Part shown: piece by piece, positions 3,764 through 25,391 of the stretch | How positions within the stretch are numbered: position 1 is the first letter of the stretch | Layout of the letters: each line of letters opens with the position of its first letter | NCBI GenBank assembly: GCA_001189075.1 | Contig: LFCN01000006.1 | Location: 17,605-81,604 of the forward strand | Reading direction: 5' to 3' | Origin: Parcubacteria bacterium C7867-004 | GTDB lineage: Bacteria; Patescibacteriota; Minisyncoccia; Phycocordibacterales; Phycocordibacteraceae | DNA length: 64,000 nt | The notes under the pieces: generated by a model | What the model was told of the DNA's origin: nothing | The model's database searches: none | What the model saw: the letters and a program-made list of their open reading frames with translations, nothing else | Translations under genes and position numbers: made by a program

Positions 3764-5671
3764 TTATTTCACTTCGCCGAACCCGGGCTGGTACGCCGGA
3801 TCGGTCACAGTGAGTGCAGTCACTTCAGAGGCAGTGGTGGTGAGCGTCTTCTTGGTGAAGCGATCGACACCCGTTACTTCCTGTATGAAGAGCAGTACAG
3901 GACTTGTACCGCGCTGGGACACGCTTGGCAACAATGCGACCTGGAAGGCTCCGAGTTTAGCCACGTTCGCATACCCTGCCCCGACCATGACGTCGCCTGC
4001 GTTCCAGGTAACGATGCGTGAGACCGGATCATAGGTCAACGAGCCGTCGGAAGGGTTCACCGCTCCCGTGAAGCGCACGTATGACGGAAGTTTCGCCGTC
4101 ACGCGCACGTCCCCGACGGAGTTGAGGGTGTTCGAGAGGGCGAACTGGATCGTGTACGTGGACTCCTGGTCCGCGACCGGCGGCCAGGGTCCCGTATTGG
4201 TGAACCCGCCGATGGTGCGGAGCGAGCGGGTCTTGAGCGAGAGATCGGTGCCGATCTTGATTGTTCGCACGAGCGTCGACTGGATGCTCTGCTGCGTGTT
4301 CCCTTCCGCGTTCCTGCCGGCGACTGATATGGTCGCCGTAATGTTCGGCTGACTTACGCCCGCGAGCGCGCCGGCGCTCTTGGTAGCGAAAGTGAACGAA
4401 CCGTTCCCGGTGCCTCCTGGCGCAAGCCGAGTGAGCCCGTCATCCGTCTCTCGGTTGAACACGACGGTAGTATCGGAAGAACGATAGAACCCGTTCATCG
4501 CGACCACGGACGACGCATCGAGTGCATTGCCGGAGAGCTTGATGGATACCTGACCATCGAGTATCTGGCTCGGCAGCGTGTTCACCCATGAGACCAACGC
4601 CTGCACCGGAGATCCGGCCGGAATAACCGGCGTCTCCCCTGAATCGCGATTGATCGAGAGCGTGCTTGATAGGAAGGGCTTTGCGAGCGCTATGGTGCTG
4701 TCGGTCTTCGCGTACTGCACCGCGAGCTCAGGAGCATCCGCGTTCGCCTGGGTCCCCGCTATGAAATGGAAGACGCGCTGTTCCGCGTTCTCAGCGGCGA
4801 GCGTGCCTGTAAGTGTAACGGTCTTCTCTTCTCCGGGAAGGAGCGTGCCGACAGGAACGATCGGTTTCTGTCCGGTCTTAAGCGTGAAGCCGAACGGGAG
4901 CGGTTCGAGCTTCACCGCAACCAGATCAAGAGGGGTCTTCGCGTTCGACTTCACCCGTATCGCAAACGTAAGGGGCTGTCCTGCCTGTGGATCGCTCGCT
5001 GCTTCCGCACGAACCGTGAGCGGCGACGAGATGATGGTTACCTCATAAGTCGTCTCCTTAACGAATACGGCGTCCGATCCCTCGACCCGGTACTCGAGCT
5101 TGATCGGTATGGATATGCGTTCATTCTCCGCACCGGCGAGGATCACGTCAATCGTCTTCTGTGCCATGGCACTCGCTTCGATACCCCCGACCGTATCGCT
5201 CAGGTGCTGCATCGGCTTGGTCTCATCATCGCCGTCGCGCGCGGTCTCCGGAAAATCAACCGAAAGCACGGTTGAGTGGATCAAGACGGGATTCTTGTTC
5301 TCTACCGAGATGAGGAGCGAGATACGTTCCCCACTCGCGATAGCGCTCGGCGCATCCGCAGTTATGAACACCCGGTCGGTCGAGACCGAGCGGCTGCCGA
5401 ATATGAGGAATGCGGCGGCGGCGATAGCGGCGAGCACGAAGAAACCTGCAGCAACGATGAGGAATATAACGGACTTCGAGAGCGGCTTCTTAGGAGGAGG
5501 CGGGAGTGGCGGTGGCGGAGGAACCCAGCCCACGGGCTTGGCTTCCGGCGCCGTGATGGTCGTAAGTACCGGAACCGGGAACGGATCTACCGGCTTCTGT
5601 GCATACAGTTTCTGCTCGAGTTTCTCGAGCGGGTCGGCATTCCCTTCGGGTGCGGGCGTCTGAGGAGGCAT
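3764..5671 (-). CDS. hypothetical membrane-anchored surface protein with repeated beta-sandwich-like domains
   Basis: 635-aa ORF with a Pro-rich N-terminus (PPPPPLPPPPKKP) followed by one TM segment. Long T/S/V-rich repeated extracellular region. No enzymatic motif. Confidence 0.4.
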   Translation of the reverse strand: MPPQTPAPEGNADPLEKLEQKLYAQKPVDPFPVPVLTTITAPEAKPVGWVPPPPPLPPPPKKPLSKSVIFLIVAAGFFVLAAIAAAAFLIFGSRSVSTDRVFITADAPSAIASGERISLLISVENKNPVLIHSTVLSVDFPETARDGDDETKPMQHLSDTVGGIEASAMAQKTIDVILAGAENERISIPIKLEYRVEGSDAVFVKETTYEVTIISSPLTVRAEAASDPQAGQPLTFAIRVKSNAKTPLDLVAVKLEPLPFGFTLKTGQKPIVPVGTLLPGEEKTVTLTGTLAAENAEQRVFHFIAGTQANADAPELAVQYAKTDSTIALAKPFLSSTLSINRDSGETPVIPAGSPVQALVSWVNTLPSQILDGQVSIKLSGNALDASSVVAMNGFYRSSDTTVVFNRETDDGLTRLAPGGTGNGSFTFATKSAGALAGVSQPNITATISVAGRNAEGNTQQSIQSTLVRTIKIGTDLSLKTRSLRTIGGFTNTGPWPPVADQESTYTIQFALSNTLNSVGDVRVTAKLPSYVRFTGAVNPSDGSLTYDPVSRIVTWNAGDVMVGAGYANVAKLGAFQVALLPSVSQRGTSPVLLFIQEVTGVDRFTKKTLTTTASEVTALTVTDPAYQPGFGEVK

Positions 5672-5692
5672 CGTGCTCCAGTATAGCCTACC

Positions 5693-6244
5693 TTAAAGGC
5701 CTGAAGCGGTAATACCCCGATTGATACGCATCACGATATCCCTGCGAGTGATCGGCGAAAGAGGTTCATTGATCTCAATCGACGGCAGCGGTCCGGCATC
5801 GAGACCGAGCGAGCGGAGTATCGTAAGCGCCGCGAGGCACTCGAGCGCGTCTTGCGCGTCTTCGGTCGCCTCGGGAAGAGCACGAAGGAAATCGAGATAG
5901 GTATCGTACAGAACCGAGTCACCCGCTTCCTCATGAACGAGCCTAAGCAGCAGGCTCGCCACGCGCCCGGCACGGAGCCGGCCTTGCTGGTCGAGGTTCC
6001 TGAAATGATCTTCGGTCAGGAGCGCTCCGGACAAGCGCCACCCTTCCTTCCCTCGCACGAGCGTTACTTCAGTCTCCGAAAGCGTCTGGAGCGCACTCGC
6101 GAGCTTCGCTCCTGGCTTCCGCAAGCCTTCGGCACGGGCACGGATAAGTCCCAGGTCGTCCGTAAGGAGCGTGATAAGAGAAGCCGATTCCTTGAGCGAG
6201 GTTCGTTTCAGCACTAGTGCGCGGGTGACGTATTTATGCCGCAT
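5693..6244 (-). CDS. recO: DNA repair protein RecO-like (short form)
   Basis: N-terminus [43 protein letters not shown] matches the RecO N-terminal OB-fold pattern. Start chosen at the internal Met to avoid overlap with ileS. Confidence 0.5.
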
Positions 6245-9200
6245 TGCGCGAAATCCTAAACCTGACCGGTCCCGTTGAGAGCTCGGCAACATGCGCGCCA
6301 TCCTCTGTCCGCTCTATAGTCACCGTATCCTTTGGCGAGAACCCTTCCGTTTTCCTCGCTTCTGCTACCGCGCGCGCGAATGTGCGTTCATCCCCCTCCT
6401 TGATGAGGTCTTCCGTGAGCTCAAAATCGAAATCAATCTTCTCCGCTTCCATCGTTACCGTATTCACATTCACCTCTTCAGCGAGGAGTTTCGCGAGATC
6501 CTTGGAAAGCGTTCCGGGAATGAAAAGTGTCGCCAGTGGCTGACGCACTTTCACATCCGCTTGCTGGCGAAGGCGAAGCGCTTCGGACGCCAGCGTTCGC
6601 ACGCGCTTCATCTCTTCAATGAGTTTCGCGTCGCGTGCATCACTTCCTGAGAGCGCGTGAAGAAGTCCGGAACGGGTGGTTGGCCAGTCTGCCAGGTGCA
6701 CGCTCTCCACGTCCGTACTCATGCGAACTTGGCTAAACACCTCTTCGGCGATGAACGGAGCGAATGGCGCCATAAGGAGCGCGCATGTACGAAGCGTCTC
6801 TTGGAGGGTCTCAAGCGCTGCCGGGTCCCCGTCACGCGCACGGTCGCGGATACTACGCACGTACCACTGCGATACGTCCTCTATGAGGTGAGCGATGGAA
6901 CGAGTAGCATCATAGAGCTTGTATGCATCCATTGCACGAGTTACTTCCGTAACCGTCTCCTTGACGCGTGCGTTCATCCATCGGTCGATTACGGTCTCGC
7001 TGCCGCTTCCCTTCGCGTCCTTGAACAGGGCGTAGAATTTCGCACTGTTATCGAGCCAGCCGATGACGCGAGCTGCTTCCTTTACGGTCTTCTCATCAAA
7101 GTTCTTTGAGTCTCCCGGCTGGTTCACGTAGTACATCCAAAACCGTAAGGTATCGACGCCGAACTTCTCGATCGCCTCCCATGGATTAACCACATTCCCT
7201 TTCGACTTGGACATCTTCGCGCCCTTCTCATCAAGCAAGTGACCGAGGCATATCACGTTCTTATAGGGTGCACCGCGGCCCATAAGCGTTCCTACGGCGA
7301 GAAGCGTGTAGAACCAGCCGCGTGTCTGATCGATCGCCTCGCTGATGAAATCAGCTGGGTATCCTTTTCCATCGATCCACTGCTTGTTCTCGAATGGGTA
7401 GTGATCCTGGGCGAACGGCATGGCTCCCGAGTCGAACCACACATCCATAACTTCAGGAACACGGCGAAGCTCGCTTCCCTCTTCTCCTATGAGAACGACG
7501 TCATCGATATACGGACGGTGCAGATCGAGCTCGTACGCTTCGTTATGCGGAAGCGGCACGAACGGAAGCTCCTTGAACTCGCCGCGCTTGGCGTGCATCG
7601 AGGTTATCGCAGTCCACGCGTCTTTCTTATTCAATCCGGCAGCTACCGTCTCGAGGGACTCGAACGCGATTCCGTGCGAGACGATGAGGATGGTCTCGTC
7701 TTTGTGCGTTCGCTCGAGTTCATAGAGGAAATCACCGAACCGCTCGCGAGCATCCTGATAGCTCTCTCCTCCGGGGATTCGATCGTCGCAAGACGACATC
7801 TTCTCTTTTCGATACGTAAAGAATTCTGAGTACGCAGTACCGTCCTGGTCTCCGAACCCGAACTCACGGAGGCGGTCGTCGGTAACAATCGCGCCTTTGG
7901 GAATGCCTGCGTTTTCAGCGATAATCGCCGCCGTCTGCTGCGCGCGCGCGAATGGCGAGGCGTAGATCTTGGTGATCTTCTCGTTCGCGAGCTTCTTCCC
8001 CGCTTCGGTAACCTGTGTCCTACCCGTTTCCGTTAGCGAGTACTTGTCCCGGTCGACACTATTCAGTATGTTCGCCACGTTATGCTCGGCCTCTCCGTGC
8101 CGCATGATGAAATACCGGTTCCCGCTTTTCTTCGTCATCTGTTTCAGTTCTTCAACCGAGCCGATGGTTACGCGCTCTGTGCCATCTACGTTCTGCCACA
8201 CCGGAAGCGGGGTGCCCCAGTACCGTTCACGAGATATAGCCCAATCACGAACGCCGTTCAGCCATTCGCCCATGCGACCTTCGCGTATGTGCGACGGCTC
8301 CCAATTAACTGCGGCATTGTTCGCGATGAGCTTCTCCTTCAGGTCCTGCATGCGGATGTACCAGGAATCGCGCGCGTAATAGATGAGCGGCGTCTTACAG
8401 CGCCAGCAGAATGGGTACGTGTGCGCATGATTCTCCTGAGAGAAGAACAATTCGCGGCGCTTGAGGTCATCAATGATCTCCACGGCGAGCGTCGGCTTGC
8501 TGTTCGCGTCAGCCTCCTTCACGTAGCGGCCGGCGAGGAATCCGGTACCCGGAACGAATGTCCCGTCCGGCTGCACCAAGTGCACTTTAGGAAGTCCCTC
8601 CTTTTGACCGAGCTCGAAGTCGTCCTGACCGTACATGACCGCCGTATGCACGATGCCGGTACCGTCTTCGGTGGTAACGAACGGAGCGGTGTACACGCGG
8701 AACGCCTTGTCTGCGAACTTCGGCTTCTCCGTTTCAGATGCGGTGTCGCGTGCGAACGGATAGAGCGGCGCATACGACTTGCCCACGAGATCCGCACCAA
8801 CTACGTTCTTGATTACTTCGTGCGTCTTTTCTGTAAATATCTTTTGAACTAATGCTGAAGCGAGGATGTAGGTCCCGCCTTCGGCCTTAACGTATGAATA
8901 TTCGATATCCTTCCCTACCGCGAGCGCGACGTTACCCGGCAGCGTCCACGGCGTCGTGGTCCACGCAAGGAAGTAGGTGCCCGGCTCATCCACTAGCTCG
9001 AACTTCACCGTCACCGACAAATCTTTTACATCCGCGTAGCCCTGCGCGAGCTCATGAGATGAGAGCGCGGTTCCGCAGCGAGTGCACCACGGCACTACCT
9101 TATAGTCCTTGAAGAGGCGTCCGTCATCGGAGACTTTCTTCATGACGTTCCAAACCGATTCCATGAATGACGGGTCGAACGTAAAGTACGCCTTATCCTG

Positions 9201-9623
9201 ATCGACCCAGTACGCGATGCGGTCGGTGAAGCGACCCCACTCCTCGATGTAGGTCATCACGCTTTCGCGACACTTCCTATTGAATGCGGCGATGCCGTAC
9301 TTCTCTATGTCCTGCTTGCCGGAGAAGCTGAGCTGCTTCTCCACCTCGAGCTCTACCGGAAGGCCGTGCGTGTCCCAGCCGGCGCGGCGCGCTACCCGGT
9401 ATCCGCGCATGGTCTTATAGCGCGGGATCGCATCCTTGAAGGAGCGGGATTCTATGTGATGCACACCCGGGCGGCCGTTTGCGGTAGGAGGGCCTTCGTA
9501 GAACACGAAGTCGCCCTTGGGGGGCTTCTTCGCGAGGCTCTTCTCGAAGATGCCATTCGTCTTCCACGACGCGAGAATGCGCTCTTCCCGTTTGACCGCC
9601 TCTGATTTCTCGCTATCAGCCAT
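6234..9623 (-). CDS. ileS: isoleucyl-tRNA synthetase with an inserted histidine-phosphatase (PGAM/SixA-like) domain
   Basis: 1129-aa ORF. N-terminus [17 protein letters not shown] (variant HIGH), CP1 editing domain, [23 protein letters not shown] and KMSKSKGN are all present. Residues ~500-660 read [11 protein letters not shown]...ILIVSHG, a histidine phosphatase fold. Confidence 0.9.
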
Positions 9624-9711
9624 ATCCTACCTATCCTAGCGTTTACCGTATGAAAAGGAAAACGGCCGCGCATAAAGCGAAGCCGCAGCAATAGATCAGT
9701 ACCCGGTCGGT

Positions 9712-10053
9712 CTAGGTCGTGACCGCGACAGGAAGCGGTTTGCCAGCCTTGGCCAGATCCATCAGGTAGGCGACGATCCTGCGGAGGAAATCCGGGACAG
9801 TCGGGTTCCTCGTGAAGCTGAACTCGGTCTGGGTCTGGCGAATGGCCTTCCTGAGGCGCCGCTCCTTGATCCGTTCGTTCCTCCGAACCCTGCCGGCCTC
9901 CGGATGGAGAAGCCTGGTCGCGGCCTCGATGAAGCGTTTCGGGTCGAACCCCTGTCGCTCGCAGAAGGTTTCCACCTTCGTGCGCCAGGTTTTGTGGTCC
10001 CCCGCGATCGAGAGGTCGGCGGTCAGGCTCGTCGGCTCAATGTTCAAGTGCAA
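9712..10053 (-). CDS. hypothetical protein (113 aa)
   Basis: ORF flanked by ~90-nt spacers between ileS and argS. Basic and Arg-rich, with no recognisable motif. Confidence 0.35.
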   Translation of the reverse strand: MHLNIEPTSLTADLSIAGDHKTWRTKVETFCERQGFDPKRFIEAATRLLHPEAGRVRRNERIKERRLRKAIRQTQTEFSFTRNPTVPDFLRRIVAYLMDLAKAGKPLPVAVTT

Positions 10054-10140
10054 CGTAAACCCCCTAACGAATGATGACGCACCCTGTGCGCGCCACGAAA
10101 TCGACGATACTCCTATTCTTTCGTCGGAGCAAGGAGATAT

Positions 10141-11826
10141 CTACATCTTCTCCGGAACCGGAATACCAAGAAGCGTGAGGCCGTTCTCCATCGTCGTAAC
10201 GAAAGCAGCAGCGAGCGCCAGCTTGTACCCCTCATACTCCCCTCCACGGATGCGCTCGTTCGCATAAAAAGAATTCCATTCGCCGGCAAGCTGGGTGAGA
10301 TACTGCACTACCGTATGCGGAGCGCGGAACGCTTCTGCGCGACGTACGGTTTCCGGATACCTCATGAGAAGGCGTTCGAGTTCGAACGCGGCCTCCGGAG
10401 CATCACTCGTATCGGGCTTCATTTCCGACTGCGCGATAACTGACTTGGCGCGCACGAGTGCGTACTGAAGATACGGACCAGAATCTCCTTCAAGAGAAAG
10501 TGATTTCTCGGGATCGAATGCGACGTTCGAACCGGGAGCTGCTCGGAGAATCATGTATTTGAGAGCGCCGATTGCGACTTGCTCGGCCACGAGCGGGTCC
10601 GCGTTGCGCGCTGCGGTAACCGTAAGCAATTCCTGGATCAGTTCCGACGCGGTTATTACGTTGCCCTTGCGGGACGACATCTTTCCGGTCGTGAGCTGCA
10701 GCAAGCCGTGGGCAAGGTGCGACGTCTTCTTCCCGAGTACCGGAGCGATATCTTCGAGTGCGGCGAGTACGACATTGAAATGTCCTATCTGCTCGACGGC
10801 CGTGATGATGATCACGCTGTCAGTTTCCGCGCGCATCTCCTTCAGGTATGCAAGGCCGAGATCCTTAGTCTCATAGGTCGGTGTTCCGCGCGAGGTGACG
10901 AACACGAGCGTGTGCAATCCTTTCTTCTCGCCCTTGTATACGATTGCACCTTCACTCTCTTCGAGGATCCCCTTCTCAACCGCGCTTGCTACCGCCTCAA
11001 GTCCTGGCTTCGTCGTATCGCTATCGAAGAACGTGTAATCAAACCTGGTACCCAGAAGACCGAAAATACGATTGAACTCCTCCATCGACACTTCTCTGCC
11101 CCGTTGCCATAGATGCAGCAACGCGCGATCTTCCTCAGATAGACCCGCGGGGTCGTCTTGCTTCCCGACGACGTCATAGATGCGGACATTGAGCGCATCT
11201 ATCTCAGCTTTGGCCTCTTCGCTTTCTTCATAGGCATTTGATCCCTGCATGTATGCCTTTCCTATCTCCTGCGCTGATGCGGGTTCGGTAACGCCATCAA
11301 GCCTGAGCGCCCAAAGCGCTTTTGCTACCTGAGGACCCACGTCTCCGCCGAACGTATCGCGCAGCACAGTAGCGCCCGATGCTTCGATGAGACGCGAGAT
11401 CGACTCGCCGATGACTGCTCCCATCAGGTGCCCGATATGCATCTCCTTGAACGGGTTCGGGTTGCCATACTCAACCATGATGCGCTGACCTGCATTCGCA
11501 GTTCCCAATCCCCAGTTGGCTCCCCCATCTGCAGCGCTCGCTATCTGCTTGGTAACGACCGCGCGGGCGAGCGTGATGTTCACGAAACCGGGTCCTGCTG
11601 CTTCAACGGTGGAGACCAGTTCTCCGAGCGAATCCTTGAGCATGCTGGCGAGCTCGTCAGCAATATCCCGCGGACTTCTTCCAAGCACCTTCGCGCTAGC
11701 GAGGGCGGCGTTCGTCGCAAAGTCCCCGTTCGCAAGCGTTGCCGGCCACTCGATAGCGAAGTCGACCTCACCCGCTCCGAGCGAGATGAGCGCTTCCTTT
11801 ACTGAGGCTCTCAGAGTCTCTTCCAT
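10141..11826 (-). CDS. argS: arginyl-tRNA synthetase
   Basis: 561-aa ORF with the HIGH motif in context NPNPFKEMHIGHLMGAVIG and a class-I ArgRS layout (N-terminal add-1 domain, C-terminal DALR-like region). Confidence 0.9.
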   Translation of the reverse strand: MEETLRASVKEALISLGAGEVDFAIEWPATLANGDFATNAALASAKVLGRSPRDIADELASMLKDSLGELVSTVEAAGPGFVNITLARAVVTKQIASAADGGANWGLGTANAGQRIMVEYGNPNPFKEMHIGHLMGAVIGESISRLIEASGATVLRDTFGGDVGPQVAKALWALRLDGVTEPASAQEIGKAYMQGSNAYEESEEAKAEIDALNVRIYDVVGKQDDPAGLSEEDRALLHLWQRGREVSMEEFNRIFGLLGTRFDYTFFDSDTTKPGLEAVASAVEKGILEESEGAIVYKGEKKGLHTLVFVTSRGTPTYETKDLGLAYLKEMRAETDSVIIITAVEQIGHFNVVLAALEDIAPVLGKKTSHLAHGLLQLTTGKMSSRKGNVITASELIQELLTVTAARNADPLVAEQVAIGALKYMILRAAPGSNVAFDPEKSLSLEGDSGPYLQYALVRAKSVIAQSEMKPDTSDAPEAAFELERLLMRYPETVRRAEAFRAPHTVVQYLTQLAGEWNSFYANERIRGGEYEGYKLALAAAFVTTMENGLTLLGIPVPEKM

Positions 11827-11895
11827 GCGGCGAGTGTAACAGAAAACAGCCGGGCGCGAAGCGTCCGGCTGTTTTCTTGATGACTACTGCCTTGT

Positions 11896-12036
11896 CTAGG
11901 AGGACTGTCCGTATGCGGCCGACTGTCCGTACGACTGCGTATTCTGCGAGAACGCGTACATGAGTGAACCGACAATTGCGAGTCCTACCAGGAGTATCGC
12001 TGCCGATTCGGTAAGGGTCTTTCCGAGGGTATTCAT
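11896..12036 (-). CDS. small hydrophobic peptide (46 aa), hypothetical
   Basis: Manual translation: MNTLGKTLTESAAILLVGLAIVGSLMYAFSQNTQSYGQSAAYGQSS. One TM helix and a QSYGQS repeat tail. Below the ORF-track length cutoff. Confidence 0.25.
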   Translation of the reverse strand: MNTLGKTLTESAAILLVGLAIVGSLMYAFSQNTQSYGQSAAYGQSS

Positions 12037-12113
12037 AGGATGCGAGTGGTTAGGCTCGTAAACTCACGACACTCGTAGTTAACCAGAGTGCGCCTGAAAT
12101 ATTCGTGAGGAAC

Positions 12114-13415
12114 CTACACGAACGAAGCAGGTACCGGATGCGACTCAGCGAGCGCTCGGATCGCCTCCTTTGCCGAAGCAACGGTCTCGTCGTCACGCTT
12201 AGTGAGCACGTCGAGCATGAGGCGCGCGACCTGCTTGGAATCGTCTTCCATAAATCCACGCGTTGTTATCGCCGGGGTACCGAAGCGTATGCCCGACGGA
12301 TCGAATGGTTTGCGCGTATCGTCAGCGATGGAGTTCTTGTTCAGCGTGATGCCTGCGCGATCAAGCAGCGTCTCCGCTTCCCCGCCTGATATACCGAGCG
12401 AGCCGAATACGTCTGCGAGCAAGAGATGGTTGTCGGTGCCGCCGGCAATAAGCCTGACACCGCCTTCCGTGAATACCTCAGCCATTGCTTGAGCATTCTT
12501 CACAACCTGATGCGCATAGTCCTTGAACGCAGGAGTCGAGGCTTCCGAGAGCATTACGGCTTTCGCCGCTATCTGATGCATGTGCGGGCCGCCCTGGAAT
12601 CCTGGGAAGACGCTGCGGTCAACCAGCGTCGGAAGATTCTGTATGGTCTTTTCAGGCGCCTTGAGCGGAGACGAGACCGTTCCTTTCGTGAGTATCATGC
12701 CGCCGCGCGGCCCGCGCAGCGTCTTGTGCGTGGTTGTGGTGACAATATCGAAACCGTGATCGAACGGGTTCTCCGCCGCTCCTCCGGCGATGAGGCCAGC
12801 AATGTGCGCGACGTCCGCCATTGCGACTGCACCAACCTCATGCGCGATGTCGGCGATACGCTTCCAGTCGAGCGAGCGCGGGTACCCGGAGAATCCGCCG
12901 AGCACGATCTTCGGTCGTTCCCGCTTGGCGGTCTCGAGCATCAGGTCGTAATCGATCTCTCCGGTATCGGGATCCTTCATGCCGTACCGCGTGAAGCGGA
13001 ACAGCTTCGCGATGTAGGTTACAGGAGCACCATGTGTGAGATGTCCCCCATGCGATAGATCCATGCCGAGGATCGCATCTCCAGGCTCGAGCCAGGAGAA
13101 GTACGCGGCGATGTTCGCCGCAGCGCCGCCGAGCGGCTGCACGTTCGCGTGGTCACAGCGGAAGAGTGCCTTCGCGCGCTCAATAGCGAGATTCTCTATC
13201 TGGTCCGTGTATTCCTGGCCGCCGTAGTAGCGTTTTCCCGGATACCCTTCCGAGTACTTGTTCGTGAGTACGCTTCCCATCGCTTCGCGTACTGCCCGCG
13301 AGACGTAATTCTCTGAGGGAATGAGCTCAAGCCCTTCCCGCTCGCGCTTCTCTTCGCCTTCAATTAGGTCGTACAATTCTCGGTCTTCTTGCTTGATATG
13401 GGTGTAGGAATCCAT
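12114..13415 (-). CDS. glyA: serine hydroxymethyltransferase
   Basis: 433-aa ORF. LELIPSENYVSRAVREAMGSVLTNKYSEGYPGKRYYGG and TTTTHKTLRGPRGG (PLP-lysine region) are SHMT signatures. Confidence 0.92.
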   Translation of the reverse strand: MDSYTHIKQEDRELYDLIEGEEKREREGLELIPSENYVSRAVREAMGSVLTNKYSEGYPGKRYYGGQEYTDQIENLAIERAKALFRCDHANVQPLGGAAANIAAYFSWLEPGDAILGMDLSHGGHLTHGAPVTYIAKLFRFTRYGMKDPDTGEIDYDLMLETAKRERPKIVLGGFSGYPRSLDWKRIADIAHEVGAVAMADVAHIAGLIAGGAAENPFDHGFDIVTTTTHKTLRGPRGGMILTKGTVSSPLKAPEKTIQNLPTLVDRSVFPGFQGGPHMHQIAAKAVMLSEASTPAFKDYAHQVVKNAQAMAEVFTEGGVRLIAGGTDNHLLLADVFGSLGISGGEAETLLDRAGITLNKNSIADDTRKPFDPSGIRFGTPAITTRGFMEDDSKQVARLMLDVLTKRDDETVASAKEAIRALAESHPVPASFV

Positions 13416-13457
13416 GCTGGTGGTGTTCGTTTGATAAAAGCCGCTCGGATTCCTATC

Positions 13458-14138
13458 TCATAATCCCTTGAGTATAGACCAAATATCCTCGTGAATCTCC
13501 TCCCGCGTCCGTATGACCCCGTCCCATACACACTCGATCGCCTTCCAGTTCTCATTCCTCTCGGCGAGCATCTCAGCGGAAGAGAACGAATGCTCCATAT
13601 ACCGCATATCGGCTTCTACGGTATCAACCCCTCCTCCCTGCGCCTCGTTCTTCACGCTCCGCTCGCGAGCAAGCAAATCGAGCGATACCTCAAGCGGGAC
13701 ACGCAGATACAAAACAAGGTCCGGACGCGGAACCCTGAGCACCTCATGCTCCATCCGGTCGAGCCAGGTAAGGAATACTTGCCTCTCTGCATCATCCTCT
13801 ATCTTTCCGCCTTGGTGTATCTGATTCGAGCTCGTAAAGCGATCCGCGACGATGGTCTCCCCGTTCGAGAGAGCGCGCCGTATCTCCTCCGCGCTTTCAG
13901 CGCGGTCGCAGGCATAGAGCGTCGAAGCTATCTTCGGATCGAGATTCACAAAATCGCCGCGCTTCCCCGCGAGGCATTCGCCGATAAGGCTTCCGAAGAA
14001 GTTCCTATCGTACGCAGGAAAATCCATCTTCCTGGCCGGGCGGCCTTCCGCATTCAAACGTTCAGCGAGCAGTCGCGACTGCGTGGCTTTCCCTGATCCG
14101 TCGAGTCCGTCGAGGACAATGAACCTACCGCTACTCAT
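13458..14138 (-). CDS. tmk: thymidylate kinase
   Basis: FIVLDGLDGSGKATQ P-loop typical of dTMP kinase; 226 aa. Confidence 0.85.
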   Translation of the reverse strand: MSSGRFIVLDGLDGSGKATQSRLLAERLNAEGRPARKMDFPAYDRNFFGSLIGECLAGKRGDFVNLDPKIASTLYACDRAESAEEIRRALSNGETIVADRFTSSNQIHQGGKIEDDAERQVFLTWLDRMEHEVLRVPRPDLVLYLRVPLEVSLDLLARERSVKNEAQGGGVDTVEADMRYMEHSFSSAEMLAERNENWKAIECVWDGVIRTREEIHEDIWSILKGL

Positions 14139-14572
14139 ACGTCGGTACTTCCTATGCCCCCGCGCGTTGGCTCTTCCATCCGCTCTACCTCCTTCAATGA
14201 GACACGATCGACCGGAAGCACGAGTATCTGCACGAGTCGCTCTCCTTTCGGTATCTCCACCGTCTCGTTCGAGAAATTATAAAGAATCACTTGGTACTCA
14301 TCCCCGTCTCCGCAGAAATCCTCATCGAAGACGCCCACGCCGTTGGCCATCATGAGCCCACGCTTATGGAGCGAGCTGCGTGCGGCCATGAGCACCATGT
14401 GCCCTGCCGGCGGCTTGATAGCGATATTAAGCGGGATGTATCCGATGCTGCGAGCAGGGATCGAAGCGGCAATCCTGGTTACGCAGTCCATCGCGGCTGC
14501 GCGCTCCGTCTTGTATTCCGGAAGCGGAAGATCGATATCGAATCGGCGTATCGGGAGTTCCATACTGAGCAT
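14135..14572 (-). CDS. dut: dUTP pyrophosphatase (dUTPase)
   Basis: Motifs RSSLHKRGLMMANGVGVFDEDFCGD, GERLVQIL and TRGGIGSTD match trimeric dUTPase motifs. Start placed at the internal Met after the upstream gene's stop. Confidence 0.75.
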   Translation of the reverse strand: MLSMELPIRRFDIDLPLPEYKTERAAAMDCVTRIAASIPARSIGYIPLNIAIKPPAGHMVLMAARSSLHKRGLMMANGVGVFDEDFCGDGDEYQVILYNFSNETVEIPKGERLVQILVLPVDRVSLKEVERMEEPTRGGIGSTDV

Positions 14573-14573
14573 T

Positions 14574-15047
14574 CTATCCGAACTGCTTCCCGACAACATT
14601 CTCGGGATGATTCTTATTAAAAAGCCGCTCGCTCCCTTCGAGCAGATACAGGTTCCGGACACCCGAATCGATCATCACATCCCAGCACGCCGTACACGCC
14701 CACCAATGCCCCCAGAGATACACATCGCCTCCTTCTGGCCTCTGCGCACGCTCCACCACCCTTCGCTCCGCATGGTTCTTCGGGTGGCACCCTTCGCAAA
14801 GCTCGTATCCCTGCCCTGTCGGGATGCCGAGCCTCACACGTTCGCACTTATGGGTCTTGTGGAACTCGCTGCCGTTGGCGGCGCGAGCTACGATGACACC
14901 GTTCTGAATGAGCACCGCTCCGGTGGGCATGCTGGTATCGAGCGAATGGAGTCTGGCCTCCTCTTTAGCTGCCTGCATGAAGGCATTGTCCTCTCCGACA
15001 TAGAGGATGGCGCGGTCAGGGGGAAGATACGGATAGTCGAAAGCCAT
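14574..15047 (-). CDS. comEB: dCMP deaminase (ComEB-like cytidine/deoxycytidylate deaminase)
   Basis: Zinc-binding HAERR ... CTAC motifs of the CDA superfamily; 157 aa, typical of dCMP deaminase. Confidence 0.7.
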   Translation of the reverse strand: MAFDYPYLPPDRAILYVGEDNAFMQAAKEEARLHSLDTSMPTGAVLIQNGVIVARAANGSEFHKTHKCERVRLGIPTGQGYELCEGCHPKNHAERRVVERAQRPEGGDVYLWGHWWACTACWDVMIDSGVRNLYLLEGSERLFNKNHPENVVGKQFG

Positions 15048-15121
15048 AGCGCTTTGGCCGTTATACCACGACCGGGTTTACCCGTTTGCCGCCCTACTCC
15101 TCGGGGGCCTATAATCAACCG

Positions 15122-15958
15122 ATGGCCCGCTTCGATACCCTCTACCAGGAGATGCTCACGCGCATTATGAACGAGGGCGTCCGGGAAATGAGCGAACGCA
15201 CGGGACATGAGACTACCGCTATTCCCGGCCTGCATTTCTCCATCGATATCGAGAAGGAAGGATTCCCGCTCCTCACCCTCCGGAAGATCCCGGTAAAGAT
15301 GTTCGTCGCCGAGCAGATCTGGTTCATCGCAGGAACGCGCAAACCCGCGGATTTCCTCCGCGAGTATACGAAGATCTGGGATAACTTCACGAACCCTGCC
15401 GATGTGGTTACCGTCGCGTACGGCTACCGTTGGCGGAAGCATTTCGGGCGCGACCAGCTCGGCGCGCTTATCGATCTCCTGAAAAAAGAGCCGAGTTCCC
15501 GGCATGGCGTGATAGTCACCTGGGACCCGGCGCAGGACGGACTTTCACTCTTCAAGAAGAAGAACGTCCCGTGTCCGTACTCCTTCACCGTGAACATCAT
15601 CGGCGGAAGACTCCATCTTCATAACATCGTCCGTTCGAACGATATGGTACTGGGCTTCCCGGCCGACGTCGCCGGCTTCGCGCTCCTGCAGCTCATCCTC
15701 GCGCAGAAGCTCGGCGTTACGCCCGGCGTGTACTCGCACTCGATCTCGAATGCGCACGTCTATGACAACCAGTACGACGCAGTGAACGAGCTCATCTCCC
15801 GCAAAGACTCGCACAAGGCCATCCAGGTCACGCTTCCCAAGCACACCTTCGAGCGCGCGGAGAAGAAGGACCGGAAGCTCGCCGAGGAGATGATCAAGAA
15901 CATCAGCGACCAGTACGCGCCTCAGGCCGCTATCACCGGGCTTCACGTAGTGCTATAA
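15122..15958 (+). CDS. thyA: thymidylate synthase (ThyA family)
   Basis: Start at MARFDTLYQEML. ThyA-like blocks RTGHETTAIPG and FPLLTLRKIP, plus VPCPYSFTVN (the catalytic Cys region, equivalent to PCHAFFQFYV). Confidence 0.8.
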   Translation: MARFDTLYQEMLTRIMNEGVREMSERTGHETTAIPGLHFSIDIEKEGFPLLTLRKIPVKMFVAEQIWFIAGTRKPADFLREYTKIWDNFTNPADVVTVAYGYRWRKHFGRDQLGALIDLLKKEPSSRHGVIVTWDPAQDGLSLFKKKNVPCPYSFTVNIIGGRLHLHNIVRSNDMVLGFPADVAGFALLQLILAQKLGVTPGVYSHSISNAHVYDNQYDAVNELISRKDSHKAIQVTLPKHTFERAEKKDRKLAEEMIKNISDQYAPQAAITGLHVVL

Positions 15959-15965
15959 CTCCCCT

Positions 15966-16601
15966 ATGGCTATCCTCACTAAGTCCGAGATCCTTGAGCG
16001 CATCGAGAGCGGCAACCTATCGTTCGCGCCGAGTCTCGATAGCTTCCAGCTCCAGATGCACGCGGTTGACCTCCGTCTCGGATTCACGTTCCTCGTACCG
16101 AAATCATGGCGCTTAACGGATAACGGCCGCGAGGCGATAAGCATCGATCCCTTGAAGGGGCACGGCTCCGAATACTTCGACGTCATAGAGCTCGAGCAAG
16201 GCCAGTACTTCGAACTCCTGCCCGAGGAATACGTCCTCGTCTCTACGTTTGAGACCATTAGCGTTCCGAACGACCTCATGGCGGTACTCTATCCCCGCTC
16301 TTCAGTGAACCGCAAAGGGCTTTCGGTCGATCTCACCGGCATCATCGATTCGGGATACCAGGGCCCACTTACACTCCCGATCCGGAACAATACCCGCTCA
16401 CAGGTGATACGCCTCCATCCGGGAGAGCGGTTCTGCCAGCTCGTGTTCGAGGAGCTCGCAACCCCCGTAAAGCAGGTAAAGAAAAGTCGTTGGCACCAGA
16501 AGGATGTCGTCGATAAAGGAAAGAAGGAGAAGTCTAACGAGATGAAGCTCGTCTTCAGCGGCGACCTTAAGAAGCTGAAGAAGGATCACCCGGTACGGTA
16601 G
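15966..16601 (+). CDS. dcd: dCTP deaminase
   Basis: N-terminus MAILTKSEILERIESGNLSF and the dUTPase-like fold motif GIIDSGYQGPLTLPIRN; 211 aa. Confidence 0.75.
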   Translation: MAILTKSEILERIESGNLSFAPSLDSFQLQMHAVDLRLGFTFLVPKSWRLTDNGREAISIDPLKGHGSEYFDVIELEQGQYFELLPEEYVLVSTFETISVPNDLMAVLYPRSSVNRKGLSVDLTGIIDSGYQGPLTLPIRNNTRSQVIRLHPGERFCQLVFEELATPVKQVKKSRWHQKDVVDKGKKEKSNEMKLVFSGDLKKLKKDHPVR

Positions 16602-16603
16602 CC

Positions 16604-17101
16604 ATGTCTCGCCTGAGCTTCATCGCCGCTATCGGAGAGCGCTCGCGCGTCCTCGGGAAAGACGGAGGGCTCGTCTGGGATCTACCAGGAGACCTCGCGC
16701 GTTTCCGTTCCATTACGAAAGGCCATCCCGTTATCATGGGTCGCAAGACCTGGGAATCAATCCCCTTGAAGCATCGACCGATGCCAGCTCGCGCGAATAT
16801 CGTCGTTACACGTGATGCCGCCTATGACGCGCCCGGCGGAATCGTGTGCACCTCTCTTCCCGAGGCCATCGAGCGGGCCAAGAGCGAAGCGGGCGCCGAA
16901 GAGATATTTATCATCGGCGGCACCCGTCTCTTCGAAGAAGCGATGCCTATCGCCGATCGCCTCTATCTCACGCTCGTTGATGATGATGCCGAGGGCGATG
17001 TCTTCTTCCCGCCCTATCCCGACTTCACAAAGATGATCTTCGAAGAAGCGCATGAGGAGAACGGCATCCGCTACCGCTTCGTTGATCTCGAGAGAGAATA
17101 A
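16604..17101 (+). CDS. folA: dihydrofolate reductase
   Basis: SFIAAIGERSRVLGKDGGLVWDLPGDLARFRSITKGHPVIMGRKTWESIP is a classic DHFR N-terminus. 165 aa. Start abuts the dcd stop. Confidence 0.92.
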   Translation: MSRLSFIAAIGERSRVLGKDGGLVWDLPGDLARFRSITKGHPVIMGRKTWESIPLKHRPMPARANIVVTRDAAYDAPGGIVCTSLPEAIERAKSEAGAEEIFIIGGTRLFEEAMPIADRLYLTLVDDDAEGDVFFPPYPDFTKMIFEEAHEENGIRYRFVDLERE

Positions 17102-21238: not shown

Positions 21239-21389
21239 ATTCTTGGGGCGGCTAGAGAGAATCGGACTCTCGATGCGGGTACCACAAACCCGAGTTTTAC
21301 CACTAAACTATAGCCGCCATGTCTGCGTAACGGAAATGCGTTACGTAGGAGCGTTATACCATAATTCGTCGGAAATACTGAGCGCGAAT

Positions 21390-21414
21390 GCGAAAAGCGC
21401 CCGGAGGCGCTTTC
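21390..21414 (-). terminator. terminator downstream of tRNA-Leu(GAG)
   Basis: Hairpin aaagcgcc-cgga-ggcgcttt, followed by a T-rich run on the minus strand. Confidence 0.6.
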
Positions 21415-21421
21415 GTCTTAG

Positions 21422-21503
21422 TGCCCAGGAGAGGACTTGAACCTCCACGCCTTGCGGCACATCCACCTCAAGGATGCATGTATACCAATTTCATCACCTG
21501 GGC
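21422..21503 (-). tRNA. tRNA-Leu(GAG), type II with long variable arm
   Basis: Reverse complement GCCCAGGTGATGAAATTGGTATACATGCATCCTTGAGGTGGATGTGCCGCAAGGCGTGGAGGTTCAAGTCCTCTCCTGGGCA. 7-bp acceptor, anticodon stem CATCC/GGATG, loop TTGAGGT, T-arm GGAGG-TTCAAGT-CCTCT. Confidence 0.85.
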
Positions 21504-21520
21504 AGGTGCGTGCTGTCTCT

Positions 21521-21564
21521 AAAAGAGGCGGCCCGCTTACTATAGCGGGCCGCCTCTTTTTTTA
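21521..21564. terminator. strong bidirectional terminator after rplS
   Basis: gaggcggcccgc-ttactata-gcgggccgcctc, a 12-bp GC-rich stem followed by a TTTTTTT run. Confidence 0.85.
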
Positions 21565-21580
21565 CAAATGTCTTGAAACG

Positions 21581-22132
21581 TTACGCGTTCTCGTCCTTCT
21601 TCTCTTCGCGGGACTCCTCTGCCGCTACTTCGGTAGGGGTCTCGACTCCTTCTTCGCCCGACTCGGCGACAACCTCGACCTCAGGAGTCTCGGTGGCGAG
21701 GACAACTTCCTCCTCGACCGGACTTCCCTCCTCCGCTACCTCGAGCTTCTCGGTCTCGGCGTAATCCTCGGTAGACATCTTAACCATGCGCATGTTGCGG
21801 AGCTGGCGACGAACCTCGCGAGCCACCTTATCGCGGATGAAGTAGAGCTTAGCGCGACGGACCTTCGAGCGCTTCGTGATCTCGATCTTATCGATGATCG
21901 GACTGTAGAGAGGGAAGATCTTCTCGACACCAATACCGGACATGACGGCGCGAACCGTGAAGGTAGCTCCGGCCTCGGTACCGTGCTTAACGGAAAGCAC
22001 GAGACCCTCGAATACCTGGAGGCGGGTCTTGCCCTTCTCGATGACTTTCTGGTGCACGCGCACAGTGTCTCCGGGGCGAACGCCAAGCTTGGCGCGCTCC
22101 ATGGTCGGGACAGGGGTTATAACGCTGTTCAT
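21581..22132 (-). CDS. rplS: 50S ribosomal protein L19 with a ~65-aa acidic C-terminal extension
   Basis: Start at MNSVITPVPTMERAKLGVRPGDTVRVHQKVIEKGKTRLQVFEGLVLS (L19 core). Tail KMSTEDYAETEKLEVAEEGSPVEEEVV...EESREEKKDENA. Confidence 0.85.
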   Translation of the reverse strand: MNSVITPVPTMERAKLGVRPGDTVRVHQKVIEKGKTRLQVFEGLVLSVKHGTEAGATFTVRAVMSGIGVEKIFPLYSPIIDKIEITKRSKVRRAKLYFIRDKVAREVRRQLRNMRMVKMSTEDYAETEKLEVAEEGSPVEEEVVLATETPEVEVVAESGEEGVETPTEVAAEESREEKKDENA

Positions 22133-22157
22133 AGTGGTCAGAACTGTATCACAGCAG

Positions 22158-22898
22158 CTACGAGCGGGCAATGAATGCCTCGCTTCCCGGGAATTTCTGA
22201 GCTGCGGCGAGCATATCGGCTGGCAGTGGCGCGATGATCTCCTTCCGAGACCCATCGAGCATCGGTAGGTCCAAACTATAGGCATGGAGACCGAGACGCG
22301 TGAGTCCGAGGTCGCACGGCTTCCCTTCCGCATAGAGCGGGTCGCACACCACCGGATGATGGAGCGCCTTCAGATGAACGCGTATCTGATGGGTCCTGCC
22401 CGTTTCTGGCATGACACGGACCATGGAGTGCGTACCTATGTCGCTCACTACTTCATACCGCGTAAGCGCATCGCGGAGCGTGCCTTTCGCCTTCGGCTGT
22501 GCGCTCCGGAGCCTAAAGTCCTTCCGGCTACGTCCTATGGAGAACTCGATCACCCCTTTCTCCTCCTTGAGGGTTCCATACACGAACGCTAGGTACGTCT
22601 TCTTTGCTTCCCGCTCCTGGAACACGGCCTTCAGGTGCGCATGCGACTCGGGGGTCTTCGCGAAGATGAGCACGCCGCTCGTGTCGCGATCAAGCCGATG
22701 CACTACGCCCGGACGCGCTATCTCGGTACCGTTCGTAAGTCGCTGCATCTCTCCCACCTCTTTCGAGTCAGGATAGTGTGCCGCGAACCAGTCGCTCGCC
22801 GTCTCATCGGTGGTGTGTCCGTCCGGGTGCGTCATGACGCCCGCAGGCTTTGCTATTGCAACGAGGTCATCGTCTTCATATATGACGGGGAGTTCCAT
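22158..22898 (-). CDS. RluA-family pseudouridine synthase
   Basis: Catalytic motif VVHRLDRDTSGVLIFAKT and a downstream RluA-family block HQIRVHL. Confidence 0.85.
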   Translation of the reverse strand: MELPVIYEDDDLVAIAKPAGVMTHPDGHTTDETASDWFAAHYPDSKEVGEMQRLTNGTEIARPGVVHRLDRDTSGVLIFAKTPESHAHLKAVFQEREAKKTYLAFVYGTLKEEKGVIEFSIGRSRKDFRLRSAQPKAKGTLRDALTRYEVVSDIGTHSMVRVMPETGRTHQIRVHLKALHHPVVCDPLYAEGKPCDLGLTRLGLHAYSLDLPMLDGSRKEIIAPLPADMLAAAQKFPGSEAFIARS

Positions 22899-22993
22899 AG
22901 ACTCACCCTACCCTCTCCTACGGTTATCCGCTAGCAACTGGAGCATAGGGGTTACTTCAAAAACTTCCTGATATGCGGTATGGTTCTACCCAA

Positions 22994-23066
22994 GGGCGAT
23001 TAGCTCAGTTGGTAGAGCGCTTCATTTACACTGAAGATGTCGGGGGTTCGAGCCCTCCATCGCCCA
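22994..23066 (+). tRNA. tRNA-Val(TAC)
   Basis: GGGCGATTAGCTCAGTTGGTAGAGCGCTTCATTTACACTGAAGATGTCGGGGGTTCGAGCCCTCCATCGCCCA. Anticodon stem CTTCA/TGAAG, loop TTTACAC. Confidence 0.85.
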
Positions 23067-23076
23067 CCCAAAAGAA

Positions 23077-23110
23077 AAGCCGCTCAGCTGAGCGGCTTCG
23101 TTCGTTCTTT
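23077..23110. terminator. terminator after tRNA-Val, also downstream of the clpP-like gene on the opposite strand
   Basis: Hairpin aagccgctcagctgagcggctt followed by a T-rich tract. Confidence 0.7.
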
Positions 23111-23111
23111 A

Positions 23112-23645
23112 CTAGGGATACACGACTTCGTCGACAATACCGAGACGCTTTGCGTCTACCCCGGTGAAGTACTTCTGTTCGCGGGACCAGCGTTGCCAAT
23201 CGCTAATGGACTGCCCGCTTCTGCGACTGAAGCAGGCGATATGATCCTGATGCTCGGTCATGCTGGCGCGCACGATGTTGAGGAAGTTCGGATCATCTAC
23301 CCGCACTCCGGTGAGGTCCGGCGCATGGAACATCAGGTCGGCGTGCGGGTAGGCCTTCCGCACATCGCATGCTTGCAGGATATTGAATGCTGCGGAGAAC
23401 GCACGCCCGATAACGAGCCCGTGCACGGGAGCGTTTGAGTTAGCCAGCACATCCGCTATGTGGAAATGCGTGGGAACGGACCCTCCTCTTGAATCTATAT
23501 ACAGGCTGATGGCGGTACTCTCATCTCGCATATTCAAATAGAATACCGAATCGATAATCCGCTTCTGCAGTTCGTCGTCGATCGGACCGCTAATGAGGAT
23601 CATCCGTCGCGCGAGGAGCGCGGCATCCGCCTCGTTCAAGCTCAT
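23112..23645 (-). CDS. clpP: ClpP-family serine protease subunit (orphan, no clpX adjacent)
   Basis: ILISGPIDDELQKRIIDSVFYLN ... ISLYIDSRGGSV ... GRAFSAAFNIL (Ser) ... MFHAP (His) is a ClpP/S14 layout. The ORF-track N-terminal extension overlaps two tRNAs, so the start is set at the internal Met (MSLNEADAALL). Confidence 0.65.
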   Translation of the reverse strand: MSLNEADAALLARRMILISGPIDDELQKRIIDSVFYLNMRDESTAISLYIDSRGGSVPTHFHIADVLANSNAPVHGLVIGRAFSAAFNILQACDVRKAYPHADLMFHAPDLTGVRVDDPNFLNIVRASMTEHQDHIACFSRRSGQSISDWQRWSREQKYFTGVDAKRLGIVDEVVYP

Positions 23646-23768
23646 GGCGTTCTCCCGCAAGGTTGTTGGAAACTTCTTCCGTAAGCGTATACCCTGCCAC
23701 CCGTTCGGCAAACGCTCATGACTGACAGAAAGAGCCCGATGTTCGCGCATCGGGCTCTTTCGCTGCAG

Positions 23769-23850
23769 TGCGCACGAGAGGACTTGAACCTCCAAGGATT
23801 GCTCCATACGCTTCTGAGACGTACGCGTATACCAGTTCCGCCACGTGCGC
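23769..23850 (-). tRNA. tRNA-Leu(CAG), type II
   Basis: Reverse complement GCGCACGTGGCGGAACTGGTATACGCGTACGTCTCAGAAGCGTATGGAGCAATCCTTGGAGGTTCAAGTCCTCTCGTGCGCA. Anticodon stem TACGT/GCGTA, loop CTCAGAA. Confidence 0.8.
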
Positions 23851-23891
23851 GCACCTGCAGACTCTAGCATTCGCAGGGGATTCAGAACATG

Positions 23892-23963
23892 TGCCTCCAG
23901 CTGGAATCGAACCAACATCGACGGCTTAGAAGTCCGCAGCTCTATCCATTGAGCTATGGAGGC
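23892..23963 (-). tRNA. tRNA-Arg(TCT)
   Basis: Reverse complement GCCTCCATAGCTCAATGGATAGAGCTGCGGACTTCTAAGCCGTCGATGTTGGTTCGATTCCAGCTGGAGGCA. Loop CTTCTAA. One A:G mismatch at the loop-closing pair. Confidence 0.75.
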
Positions 23964-23972
23964 CTTGTCACC

Positions 23973-24281: not shown

Positions 24282-24286
24282 AAGGG

Positions 24287-25389: not shown

Positions 25390-25391
25390 AA

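Follow-up and report, generated by a model that had tools for sequence, protein, structure and literature searches.

A histidine phosphatase nested within the isoleucyl-tRNA synthetase of Patescibacteria

The gene ileS of Parcubacteria bacterium C7867-004 lies in a 64,000-nucleotide stretch of contig LFCN01000006.1 (positions 17,605 to 81,604; hereafter the window) and encodes a type-2 isoleucyl-tRNA synthetase (IleRS) with an apparently active branch-1 histidine-phosphatase domain nested inside it. In Patescibacteria, the phosphatase family is tied repeatedly to IleRS and to valyl-tRNA synthetase (ValRS). It occurs as the product of a neighbouring gene, as a domain nested at three ValRS sites and at no fewer than four IleRS sites, and in multiple copies. 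From this recurrence and from the gene order, we lean, with reservations, towards the view that the phosphatase activity is functionally coupled to the charging of tRNA with Ile and Val.

Pfam recognizes three families in the 1129-residue protein, namely tRNA-synt_1 (E 1.6e-117), Anticodon_1 (residues 880–1030) and His_Phos_1 (PF00300). The last scores 121.8 bits in the whole protein and 126.8 bits when excised, against a gathering score of 21.7, and covers positions 2–168 of the 194 in the profile. With E-values of 3.7e-35 for the whole protein and 1.1e-36 for the excised segment (7554..8126), a chance match is excluded. A frameshift, a chimera or a separate gene was also considered. All three are ruled out by the unbroken open reading frame (ORF) of 1129 residues, the flat GC content along the insert, and the related loci, in 80 of 80 of which the domain lies in one stop-free frame, with proteins of about 1100–1350 residues wherever the contig allows.

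The point of insertion can be read from the alignment to structure 8c8w of the IleRS2 from P. megaterium (753 bits over both halves). Residues 8–495 of the window protein correspond to residues 9–476 of 8c8w, and residues 698–1059 to 485–850; thus, about 202 residues in the window enzyme take the place of about 8 in 8c8w. The catalytic core carries a hairpin in its second half, ahead of the DVWFDSG motif, and the tip of this hairpin holds the insertion. In relatives, the same hairpin is flanked by a CxxC...CxxC pattern, the cysteines of which are absent from the window protein and are retained next to the insert in several fused relatives. Relatives with no insert carry 3–21 residues at this point. 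A first-pass annotation of the window, made from its letters and ORFs, had proposed a histidine phosphatase nested ahead of DVWFDSG, and had counted about 250 residues between PLPVW and DVWFDSG where canonical enzymes have 60–70; both the nesting and the count hold. Its placement of the insert in the connective-peptide region needs correcting, as the hairpin lies outside connective peptide 1 (CP1), the editing insertion.

Structure prediction suggests that the insert would fold on its own. In the full-length AlphaFold2 model, built from an alignment of 53 sequences (mean predicted local distance difference test score, pLDDT, 83; predicted template-modelling score, pTM, 0.73), confidence is highest in the insert, with 10-residue blocks at 90–96, and the excised domain modelled alone reaches a pLDDT of 94.8 and a pTM of 0.91. 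The insert is thus predicted to be an autonomous globular domain on the surface of the catalytic core, in line with the independent folding that the first-pass annotation had raised as a question for structure prediction.

Judged by its sequence, the domain carries the complete catalytic set of a branch-1 histidine phosphatase. In the alignment to PhoE (1EBB/1H2E), R508 and H509 of the RHG motif, R560, E587 and H650 fall on the PhoE catalytic residues. R508, H509, R560 and H650 are invariant and E587 is at least 90% conserved among 53 close fused sequences. All five, together with R628, are invariant in 17 distant fused sequences, the inserts of which share 35–51% identity, and N515 and R628 are likewise invariant or almost so among the fused sequences. 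The motifs quoted in the first-pass annotation (RHG, the R560 block, RLREFGFG with E587, and SHG with H650) are all found at their places by translation, and its reading of the catalytic residues as intact agrees with their conservation.

These data bear on whether the insert is an enzyme at all. It could instead serve a structural role, dimerisation or the binding of tRNA or a partner, standing in for a lost zinc knuckle, the catalytic residues being relics. The CxxC...CxxC cysteines, which in relatives stand on either side of the insertion point, are indeed missing from the window enzyme, and non-catalytic modules are found in this region of other class Ia synthetases, for example the leucine-specific domain of leucyl-tRNA synthetase (LeuRS). 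Several fused relatives, however, have the cysteines as well as the insert, and catalytic residues that stay invariant at 35–51% insert identity are not those of a decaying relic. The five residues, with N515 and R628, are also invariant or nearly so in almost every copy of the multi-copy proteins described below. We consider a non-catalytic role highly improbable.

The host protein itself is identified as ileS by NCBIfam TIGR00392 (847.9 bits against a cut-off of 621.4), and the identical protein, encoded on a 686-kb contig, is on database record as 'isoleucyl-tRNA synthetase [Parcubacteria bacterium C7867-004]'. Its top matches in both sequence and fold are the P. megaterium IleRS2 structures 8c8u-w, with a TMt of 0.78 for the full-length model. 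The GTGIVH...D, GVHH, KMSKS and editing motifs are all present, so that the synthetase half looks intact. Judging from this motif conservation, the protein is presumably the housekeeping type-2 IleRS, competent in Ile-specific aminoacylation and in Val editing. The HIGH variant GVHH is of the [A/G]XHH type, with G53 and H55 at least 90% conserved and H56 invariant in the 53 close homologues; a 2026 IleRS preprint states that IleRS2 enzymes become hyper-resistant to mupirocin through this variant. The protein scores below the cut-offs of the NCBIfam exception models MupA and MupB (713 and 680 bits against 1900) and of ileS_w_GNAT (NF040702; 312.8 bits against 1999), and Pfam finds no acetyltransferase domain in it.

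Which histidine phosphatase the insert resembles was examined by structure and by profile. The profile score, the catalytic set and the predicted alpha/beta fold of the phosphoglycerate-mutase type place it in branch 1 of His_Phos_1. A Foldseek search with the excised model returned small-molecule phosphatases at probability 1.00, with template-modelling (TM) scores of 0.70–0.78, root-mean-square deviations of 2.5–3 Å, about 190 aligned columns and 22–28% identity. Its neighbours there are the phosphoserine phosphatase PspA, the riboflavin-pathway HFP, TIGAR, the S. pombe phosphoglycerate mutase (PGM), GpgP, PhoE and CobC.

Each specific assignment that was tried fell short. For cofactor-dependent PGM (dPGM), the archaeal model NF038349, which is the top NCBIfam match, gives 104.4 bits against 225, TIGR01258 pgm_1 gives 31.6 against 81.7 and GpmB 72 against 261; matches to long dPGMs are limited to the first ~95 residues. 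Phosphoserine phosphatase (PSP/PspA) scores 70.8 against a cut-off of 350, and CobC 84.6 against 162.9 (TIGR03162) and 56.4 against 250 (NF011580). SixA (TIGR00249) reaches 41.8 bits against 74.5 and is matched only over residues 5–74 of the segment; moreover, the insert has a cap, whereas SixA (~155 residues) is cap-less. The description of the domain as very close to SixA and CobC, given in the first-pass annotation, was therefore too strong, and the nearest enzymes are of the PspA/PhoE/HFP/TIGAR type.

Among these, PhoE (1EBB/1H2E), PspA (4IJ5/6), HFP (9MMH), GpgP Rv2419c, CobC and TIGAR share with the insert the fold, the R-H...R...E...H set and a length of about 200 residues with a cap. 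The insert differs from PhoE-type enzymes in having its own loop after RHGExxxN (...LNS/LDS...LT.xG) in place of GW.D, and in being nested inside another enzyme, whereas PhoE-type enzymes are free and oligomeric. The fusion of a His_Phos domain with an enzyme that handles nucleic acid has a precedent in the RNase H/acid phosphatase (NF005567, PRK07238; M. tuberculosis Rv2228c type). Against the phosphatase half of PRK07238, the insert reaches 85 bits, far under the cut-off of 326; that fusion, however, has another partner and is made end to end with the phosphatase C-terminal, whereas the present one is nested.

On the synthetase side, the IleRS2 of P. megaterium (8C8U/8C8V/8C8W) and T. thermophilus 1ILE share KMSKS, the editing motifs, the type-2 C-terminal domains and [A/G]XHH with the window enzyme, which differs in that a ~202-residue phosphatase occupies the hairpin tip, made up of about 8 residues in IleRS2, and in having lost the hairpin cysteines. 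Among the curated models encountered, ileS_w_GNAT alone describes an IleRS with an extra catalytic domain; that domain is a GNAT and apparently lies in another region. The INS module in ARD2 of IleRS2, described in the 2026 preprint, resembles the insert in being a nested, lineage-variable module in a class Ia peripheral loop, and so does the leucine-specific domain of LeuRS. Both are small, have no enzymatic activity of their own and serve to bind tRNA or to tune catalysis, whereas the insert of the window enzyme is a complete second enzyme.

The fusion is lineage-wide, a point that the first-pass annotation had raised as a question. PF00300 is present in all 120 top homologue clusters, which are 62–71% identical to the window protein, 1093–1189 residues long and drawn from metagenome-assembled genomes of Patescibacteria/Paceibacterota. 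The fusion is found in at least 391 loci of species-representative genomes of Patescibacteria (the candidate phyla radiation, CPR), mostly Paceibacteria; the taxa among the matches listed include Zambryski-, Nomura-, Kaiser-, Adler-, Taylor- and Vogelbacteria. When the insert was queried exhaustively against 1.84 billion representative proteins, 18,601 matches were obtained at E<=1e-3, and IleRS or IleRS fragments make up most of the best 150 of these. No second phosphatase copy was found within 6 kb in the 80 loci fetched.

Two further observations concern the phyletic range. One locus (L002, JBLNCF010000015.1) labelled 'Bacillota bacterium MAG132' encodes a fused IleRS, the insert of which is 55% identical to that of the window; an error of binning or labelling in a Patescibacteria contig is a likelier explanation than a fusion in Bacillota. 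In addition, free tandem di-domain histidine phosphatases of about 400 residues are among the best matches (P0160, P0185, P0197, P0210, P0212, P0227, P0235, P0243, P0252 and P0269). P0160 is annotated as Woesearchaeota (DPANN), which places related duplicated phosphatases in other lineages of ultra-small cells.

The hairpin of the window enzyme, here site A, is one of several places at which the domain is found. Other CPR IleRS carry it at three further sites, some with two or three copies. At site B, it immediately follows DCWFESGSMPYA (Peregrinibacteria P0204/P0275, and also P0128, P0162 and P0161). At site C, which separates the segment bearing KMSKS from the first anticodon-recognition domain, it comes after ...LPLRxTYxFLSTYAxxDGWxPT (P0128, P0162, P0161). 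At site A', it lies downstream of the second CxxC (P0161). Tandem pairs occupy site A in P0182, P0165 and P0242. One site-A fused IleRS (P0264, 1066 residues) has an extra, unassigned insertion of ~150 residues in the editing-domain region (about residues 337–489).

The domain also enters ValRS. Three metagenomic clusters assigned to ValRS by NCBIfam, P0234 (1538 residues), P0124 (1161 residues, a fragment) and P0280 (1140 residues), carry from one to four or more phosphatase copies each, placed where sites A and B have their ValRS counterparts and, as a fourth site, behind PMISPQWF. The assignment of P0234 is supported by 849 bits against a cut-off of 704 and by the JGI name valyl-tRNA synthetase. 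Across the multi-site IleRS and ValRS proteins, 20 of the 21 full-length copies inspected retain R, H, R, E and H; the lone exception is an E-to-A change in the first copy of P0234. Behind the first phosphatase domain of P0234 there is a stretch of ~250 residues (about 626–870) with no family match. A tree of the domains is star-like at 30–40% identity, with only same-site, same-position copies clustering, and the number and direction of transfers cannot be read from it.

A free-standing form of the phosphatase is found next to IleRS. Free 'PhoE-like' phosphatases of about 189 residues (the P0211 family) form 318 clusters in Patescibacteria at E<=1e-10; the one member aligned, P0211, is 34–41% identical to IleRS inserts and 26% to that of the window, and the catalytic residues are invariant in 119 free homologues. 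In 6 of 6 contexts checked (L081–L086), the free gene lies between argS and an ileS with no insert (931–983 residues), abutting or overlapping ileS in two of them, and downstream of ileS come recO and a DUF11/CLIPPER protein. The partner IleRS has a short CxxC...CxxC hairpin exactly at the site of the window's 202 residues. Within the survey, the P0211 family is thus the closest free relative of the insert, sharing with the window the catalytic and N-terminal Asn motifs and the argS-ileS-recO block, and differing in being a separate gene product with an insert-less partner.

Gene order in the window, read on the reverse strand, is argS, a 517-bp spacer, ileS with its insert, recO, the DUF11 protein and a class II synthetase. 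The spacer (9624..10140) corresponds to the position of the free phosphatase gene in relatives, and tblastn and six-frame hmmsearch found no remnant of that gene in it (best E ~0.3–1). The spacer contains a 113-residue ORF (9712..10053, reverse strand) with no Pfam match and no detectable similarity to the free phosphatase. No second His_Phos gene occurs within the 64-kb window. In an unbootstrapped neighbour-joining tree of the IleRS skeletons, the enzymes that have a free partner are scattered among those fused at site A. This is a hint of repeated gain or loss of the fusion, and only a hint because the tree has no bootstrap support.

The median isoelectric point (pI) is 9.85 for the free homologues and 5.25 for the inserted domains. 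This contrast was considered as a sign of RNA or partner binding by the free form, for which tethering would have removed the need, and rejected: the loci of the free gene have 32–40% GC and encode ArgRS and IleRS that are likewise basic, so that the contrast is a composition effect of the lineage. Two of these loci hold additional genes. In L082, a bAvd gene and a reverse transcriptase (RVT_1), resembling a diversity-generating retroelement, lie between ileS and recO (10716..12078). In L084, an RHH antitoxin/ParE-YafQ-type toxin pair and an HD_3 phosphohydrolase gene lie between the free phosphatase gene and ileS (5652..6819).

Having set out this recurrence, we would weigh the main alternative to a coupling with tRNA charging, which is that the phosphatase is an ordinary small-molecule enzyme, housed in or beside an essential and constitutively expressed gene of a streamlined genome, with no mechanistic link to charging. 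Examples would be a phosphoserine phosphatase, a nucleotidase or the PGM that is 'missing' from some Parcubacteria. Metabolic enzymes provide the closest structures and profiles (PspA, S. pombe PGM, TIGAR, CobC and, as top NCBIfam match, archaeal dPGM), a passage of Jaffe et al. can be counted in its support, and nucleotide-metabolism genes lie near ileS in the window. Set against this, none of the curated cut-offs for dPGM, PSP or CobC is reached, and the insert lacks the GW-D loop motif of PhoE. That motif is also carried by dPGM. Furthermore, a mere housing in a convenient gene leaves unexplained why the domain entered IleRS and ValRS at several sites, and why the free gene is found by ileS, rather than by glycolytic genes, in all six contexts checked. 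We regard this alternative as doubtful, although a real possibility.

Several points nevertheless weigh against a coupling to charging. First, the nearest characterised relatives of the domain are ordinary metabolic phosphatases. Second, the tandem copies diverge according to position, being about 30% identical between positions, and this divergence could reflect different small-molecule specificities unrelated to tRNA charging. Third, the ValRS and multi-site cases are few, at one to six sequences per cluster, and come from metagenome assemblies. Fourth, the neighbour-joining trees are unbootstrapped, which leaves it uncertain how often the domain was inserted independently. Fifth, argS-ileS-recO is conserved as a block, so that the adjacency may be due in part to descent rather than to selection.

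The chemistry of the domain would follow that of the family. Histidine phosphatases hydrolyse phosphomonoesters through a phospho-histidine. In the insert, H509 would attack the phosphomonoester to form this intermediate, R508, R560 and H650 would hold the phosphate, and E587 would protonate the leaving group. The capped PhoE/PspA-like fold suggests that the substrate would be a small phosphate ester or a terminal phosphate group. Under the coupling to charging, the target would be something that the synthetase binds, makes or is inhibited by, and the phosphatase is probably not an unrelated metabolic enzyme. The product of the free neighbouring gene would probably work alongside IleRS, and nesting would make that association permanent.

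As to the substrate itself, three candidates may be ranked, all speculatively. Our preferred one would be a reaction-linked, nucleotide-type phosphomonoester, such as a nucleoside monophosphate or a 2'/3'-phosphorylated nucleotide; the second, a phosphorylated tRNA 3' end that blocks charging; the third, a phospho-residue on the synthetase. The first-pass annotation had put forward Ap4A, (p)ppGpp or a phosphoprotein. The first two are chemically unlikely for a phosphomonoesterase: Ap4A contains no phosphomonoester and the terminal phosphates of (p)ppGpp are linked only as phosphoanhydrides, which makes both poor fits for the family. A phosphoprotein is possible, although the cap-bearing fold resembles small-molecule enzymes.

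In a further alternative, the domain would be a repair or antitoxin module that strips a phosphate or pyrophosphate blocking the charging reaction. Its targets might be a CCA end 2'/3'-phosphorylated or pyrophosphorylated by RNases or RelA-SpoT-type toxins, or a phospho-Ser/Thr/His placed on the synthetase by a HipA-type kinase toxin. Such a role would suit a domain that is tethered, at several places on the periphery of the catalytic core, to two enzymes that handle tRNA, and that has an operon link with argS and ileS. Protein phosphatases, too, belong to the histidine phosphatase family (SixA, Sts-1, PGAM5), as does the PRK07238 fusion mentioned above. Yet the inserted domains are acidic and have the capped PhoE/PspA-like fold rather than the open SixA type, the basic pI of the free homologues is traced to lineage composition, and neither the restriction to Ile and Val nor the presence of up to four copies is obviously expected of tRNA-end repair. 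Such a module is, in our judgement, quite unlikely. A specific form of the coupling would be a hitherto unrecognized accessory activity of class Ia synthetases, directed in cis at something that the synthetase presents; the most striking targets would be a (pyro)phosphate at the tRNA 3' end, or a toxin-kinase phosphate on the synthetase, removed before charging. We also hold this to be unlikely. If true, CPR IleRS and ValRS would possess a built-in repair or counter-defence step, and the repeated independent capture at no fewer than four sites, together with the operon link, would be the evolutionary signature of coupling.

Table 1. Coordinates in the window of ileS, its nested phosphatase domain and its neighbours
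Feature	Coordinates	Strand	Basis or remark
ileS, type-2 IleRS with nested phosphatase domain	6234..9623	-	single ORF, 1129 aa; stop codon 6234..6236
IleRS N-terminal part, aa 1-495 (first half of catalytic core and CP1/editing domain)	8139..9623	-	8c8w alignment
GVHH (HIGH variant), aa 53-56	9456..9467	-	checked by translation
Threonine-rich editing peptide of IleRS	8931..8963	-	checked by translation
Further motif of IleRS N-terminal part	8619..8663	-	checked by translation
Motif of IleRS N-terminal part, ahead of the insert	8214..8243	-	
Inserted segment, aa 496-697, phosphatase and short linkers (KKSGN...PLPHNEAY)	7533..8138	-	gap against 8c8w
Pfam His_Phos_1 (PF00300), aa 505-671	7611..8111	-	E 3.7e-35 in whole protein
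RHG motif, aa 508-510: R508 and predicted nucleophile H509	8094..8102	-	invariant in all fused and free-standing relatives examined
R560, second phosphate-pocket Arg	7944..7946	-	aligns to PhoE 1EBB/1H2E Arg (STSGRALETA; Arg58 in alignment numbering)
E587, predicted general acid (RLREFGFGD)	7863..7865	-	PhoE alignment
H650, second catalytic His (IVSHG)	7674..7676	-	PhoE alignment
IleRS C-terminal part, aa 698-1129, including anticodon-recognition domains	6237..7532	-	8c8w alignment, Pfam
Motif of IleRS C-terminal part	7425..7445	-	checked by translation
KMSKS of IleRS	7203..7217	-	checked by translation
argS (upstream neighbour)	10141..11826	-	Pfam, synteny with L081-L086
argS-ileS spacer, 517 bp	9624..10140	-	position of free phosphatase gene in relatives
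recO (downstream neighbour)	5693..6301	-	RecO_N, synteny with L081-L086

Other genes of the window were also surveyed. The DUF11 protein downstream of recO (3764..5671, reverse strand) has 635 residues, is rich in proline at its N-terminus and is predicted to contain one membrane helix; its match to DUF11/CLIPPER is weak. It is kept in the same order in the distant relatives L081 and L085, and is probably a cell-surface protein. The nucleotide-metabolism genes form a thymidylate/folate cluster just upstream of argS (12114..17101), encoding SHMT, thymidylate kinase (Tmk), dUTPase, a dCTP deaminase-like protein (DCD) and DHFR. Nine tRNA genes (His, two Leu, Val, three Arg, Ser and Lys) are gathered in about 10 kb (21244..31426). 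Within this region, a ClpP ORF (23112..23918) overlaps tRNA-Leu (23768..23850) and reaches tRNA-Arg (23891..23963). The Pfam match begins at residue 98, and the overlap with tRNA genes indicates that the true start lies further downstream.

The feature appears to be undescribed, as the first-pass annotation had surmised. A full-text search over 8 million papers and preprints, with subscription-only literature outside its scope, found no description of an IleRS-phosphatase fusion, and a 2026 preprint on the domain architectures of 96,219 IleRS mentions no phosphatase. The sequences are already public with automatic Pfam labels, often under the name 'class I tRNA ligase family protein', and type-2 IleRS and His_Phos_1 are each known families; what is new is the combination. 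The generic protein names, and the silence of large surveys of IleRS architecture on the insert, make the finding relevant to annotation.

Aminoacyl-tRNA synthetases rank among the best-studied enzymes, and extra catalytic domains nested in their cores are rare. Here, a second, apparently active enzyme resides within an essential synthetase across hundreds of Patescibacteria species. If the domain were a divergent PGM, it could account for 'missing' steps in metabolic reconstructions of these organisms. More generally, the neighbouring gene, the nesting at multiple sites and the multiple copies are hard to explain without a functional link, and point either to an unknown phosphate-dependent step connected with Ile/Val charging or to metabolic enzymes being accommodated in minimal genomes in an unusual manner.

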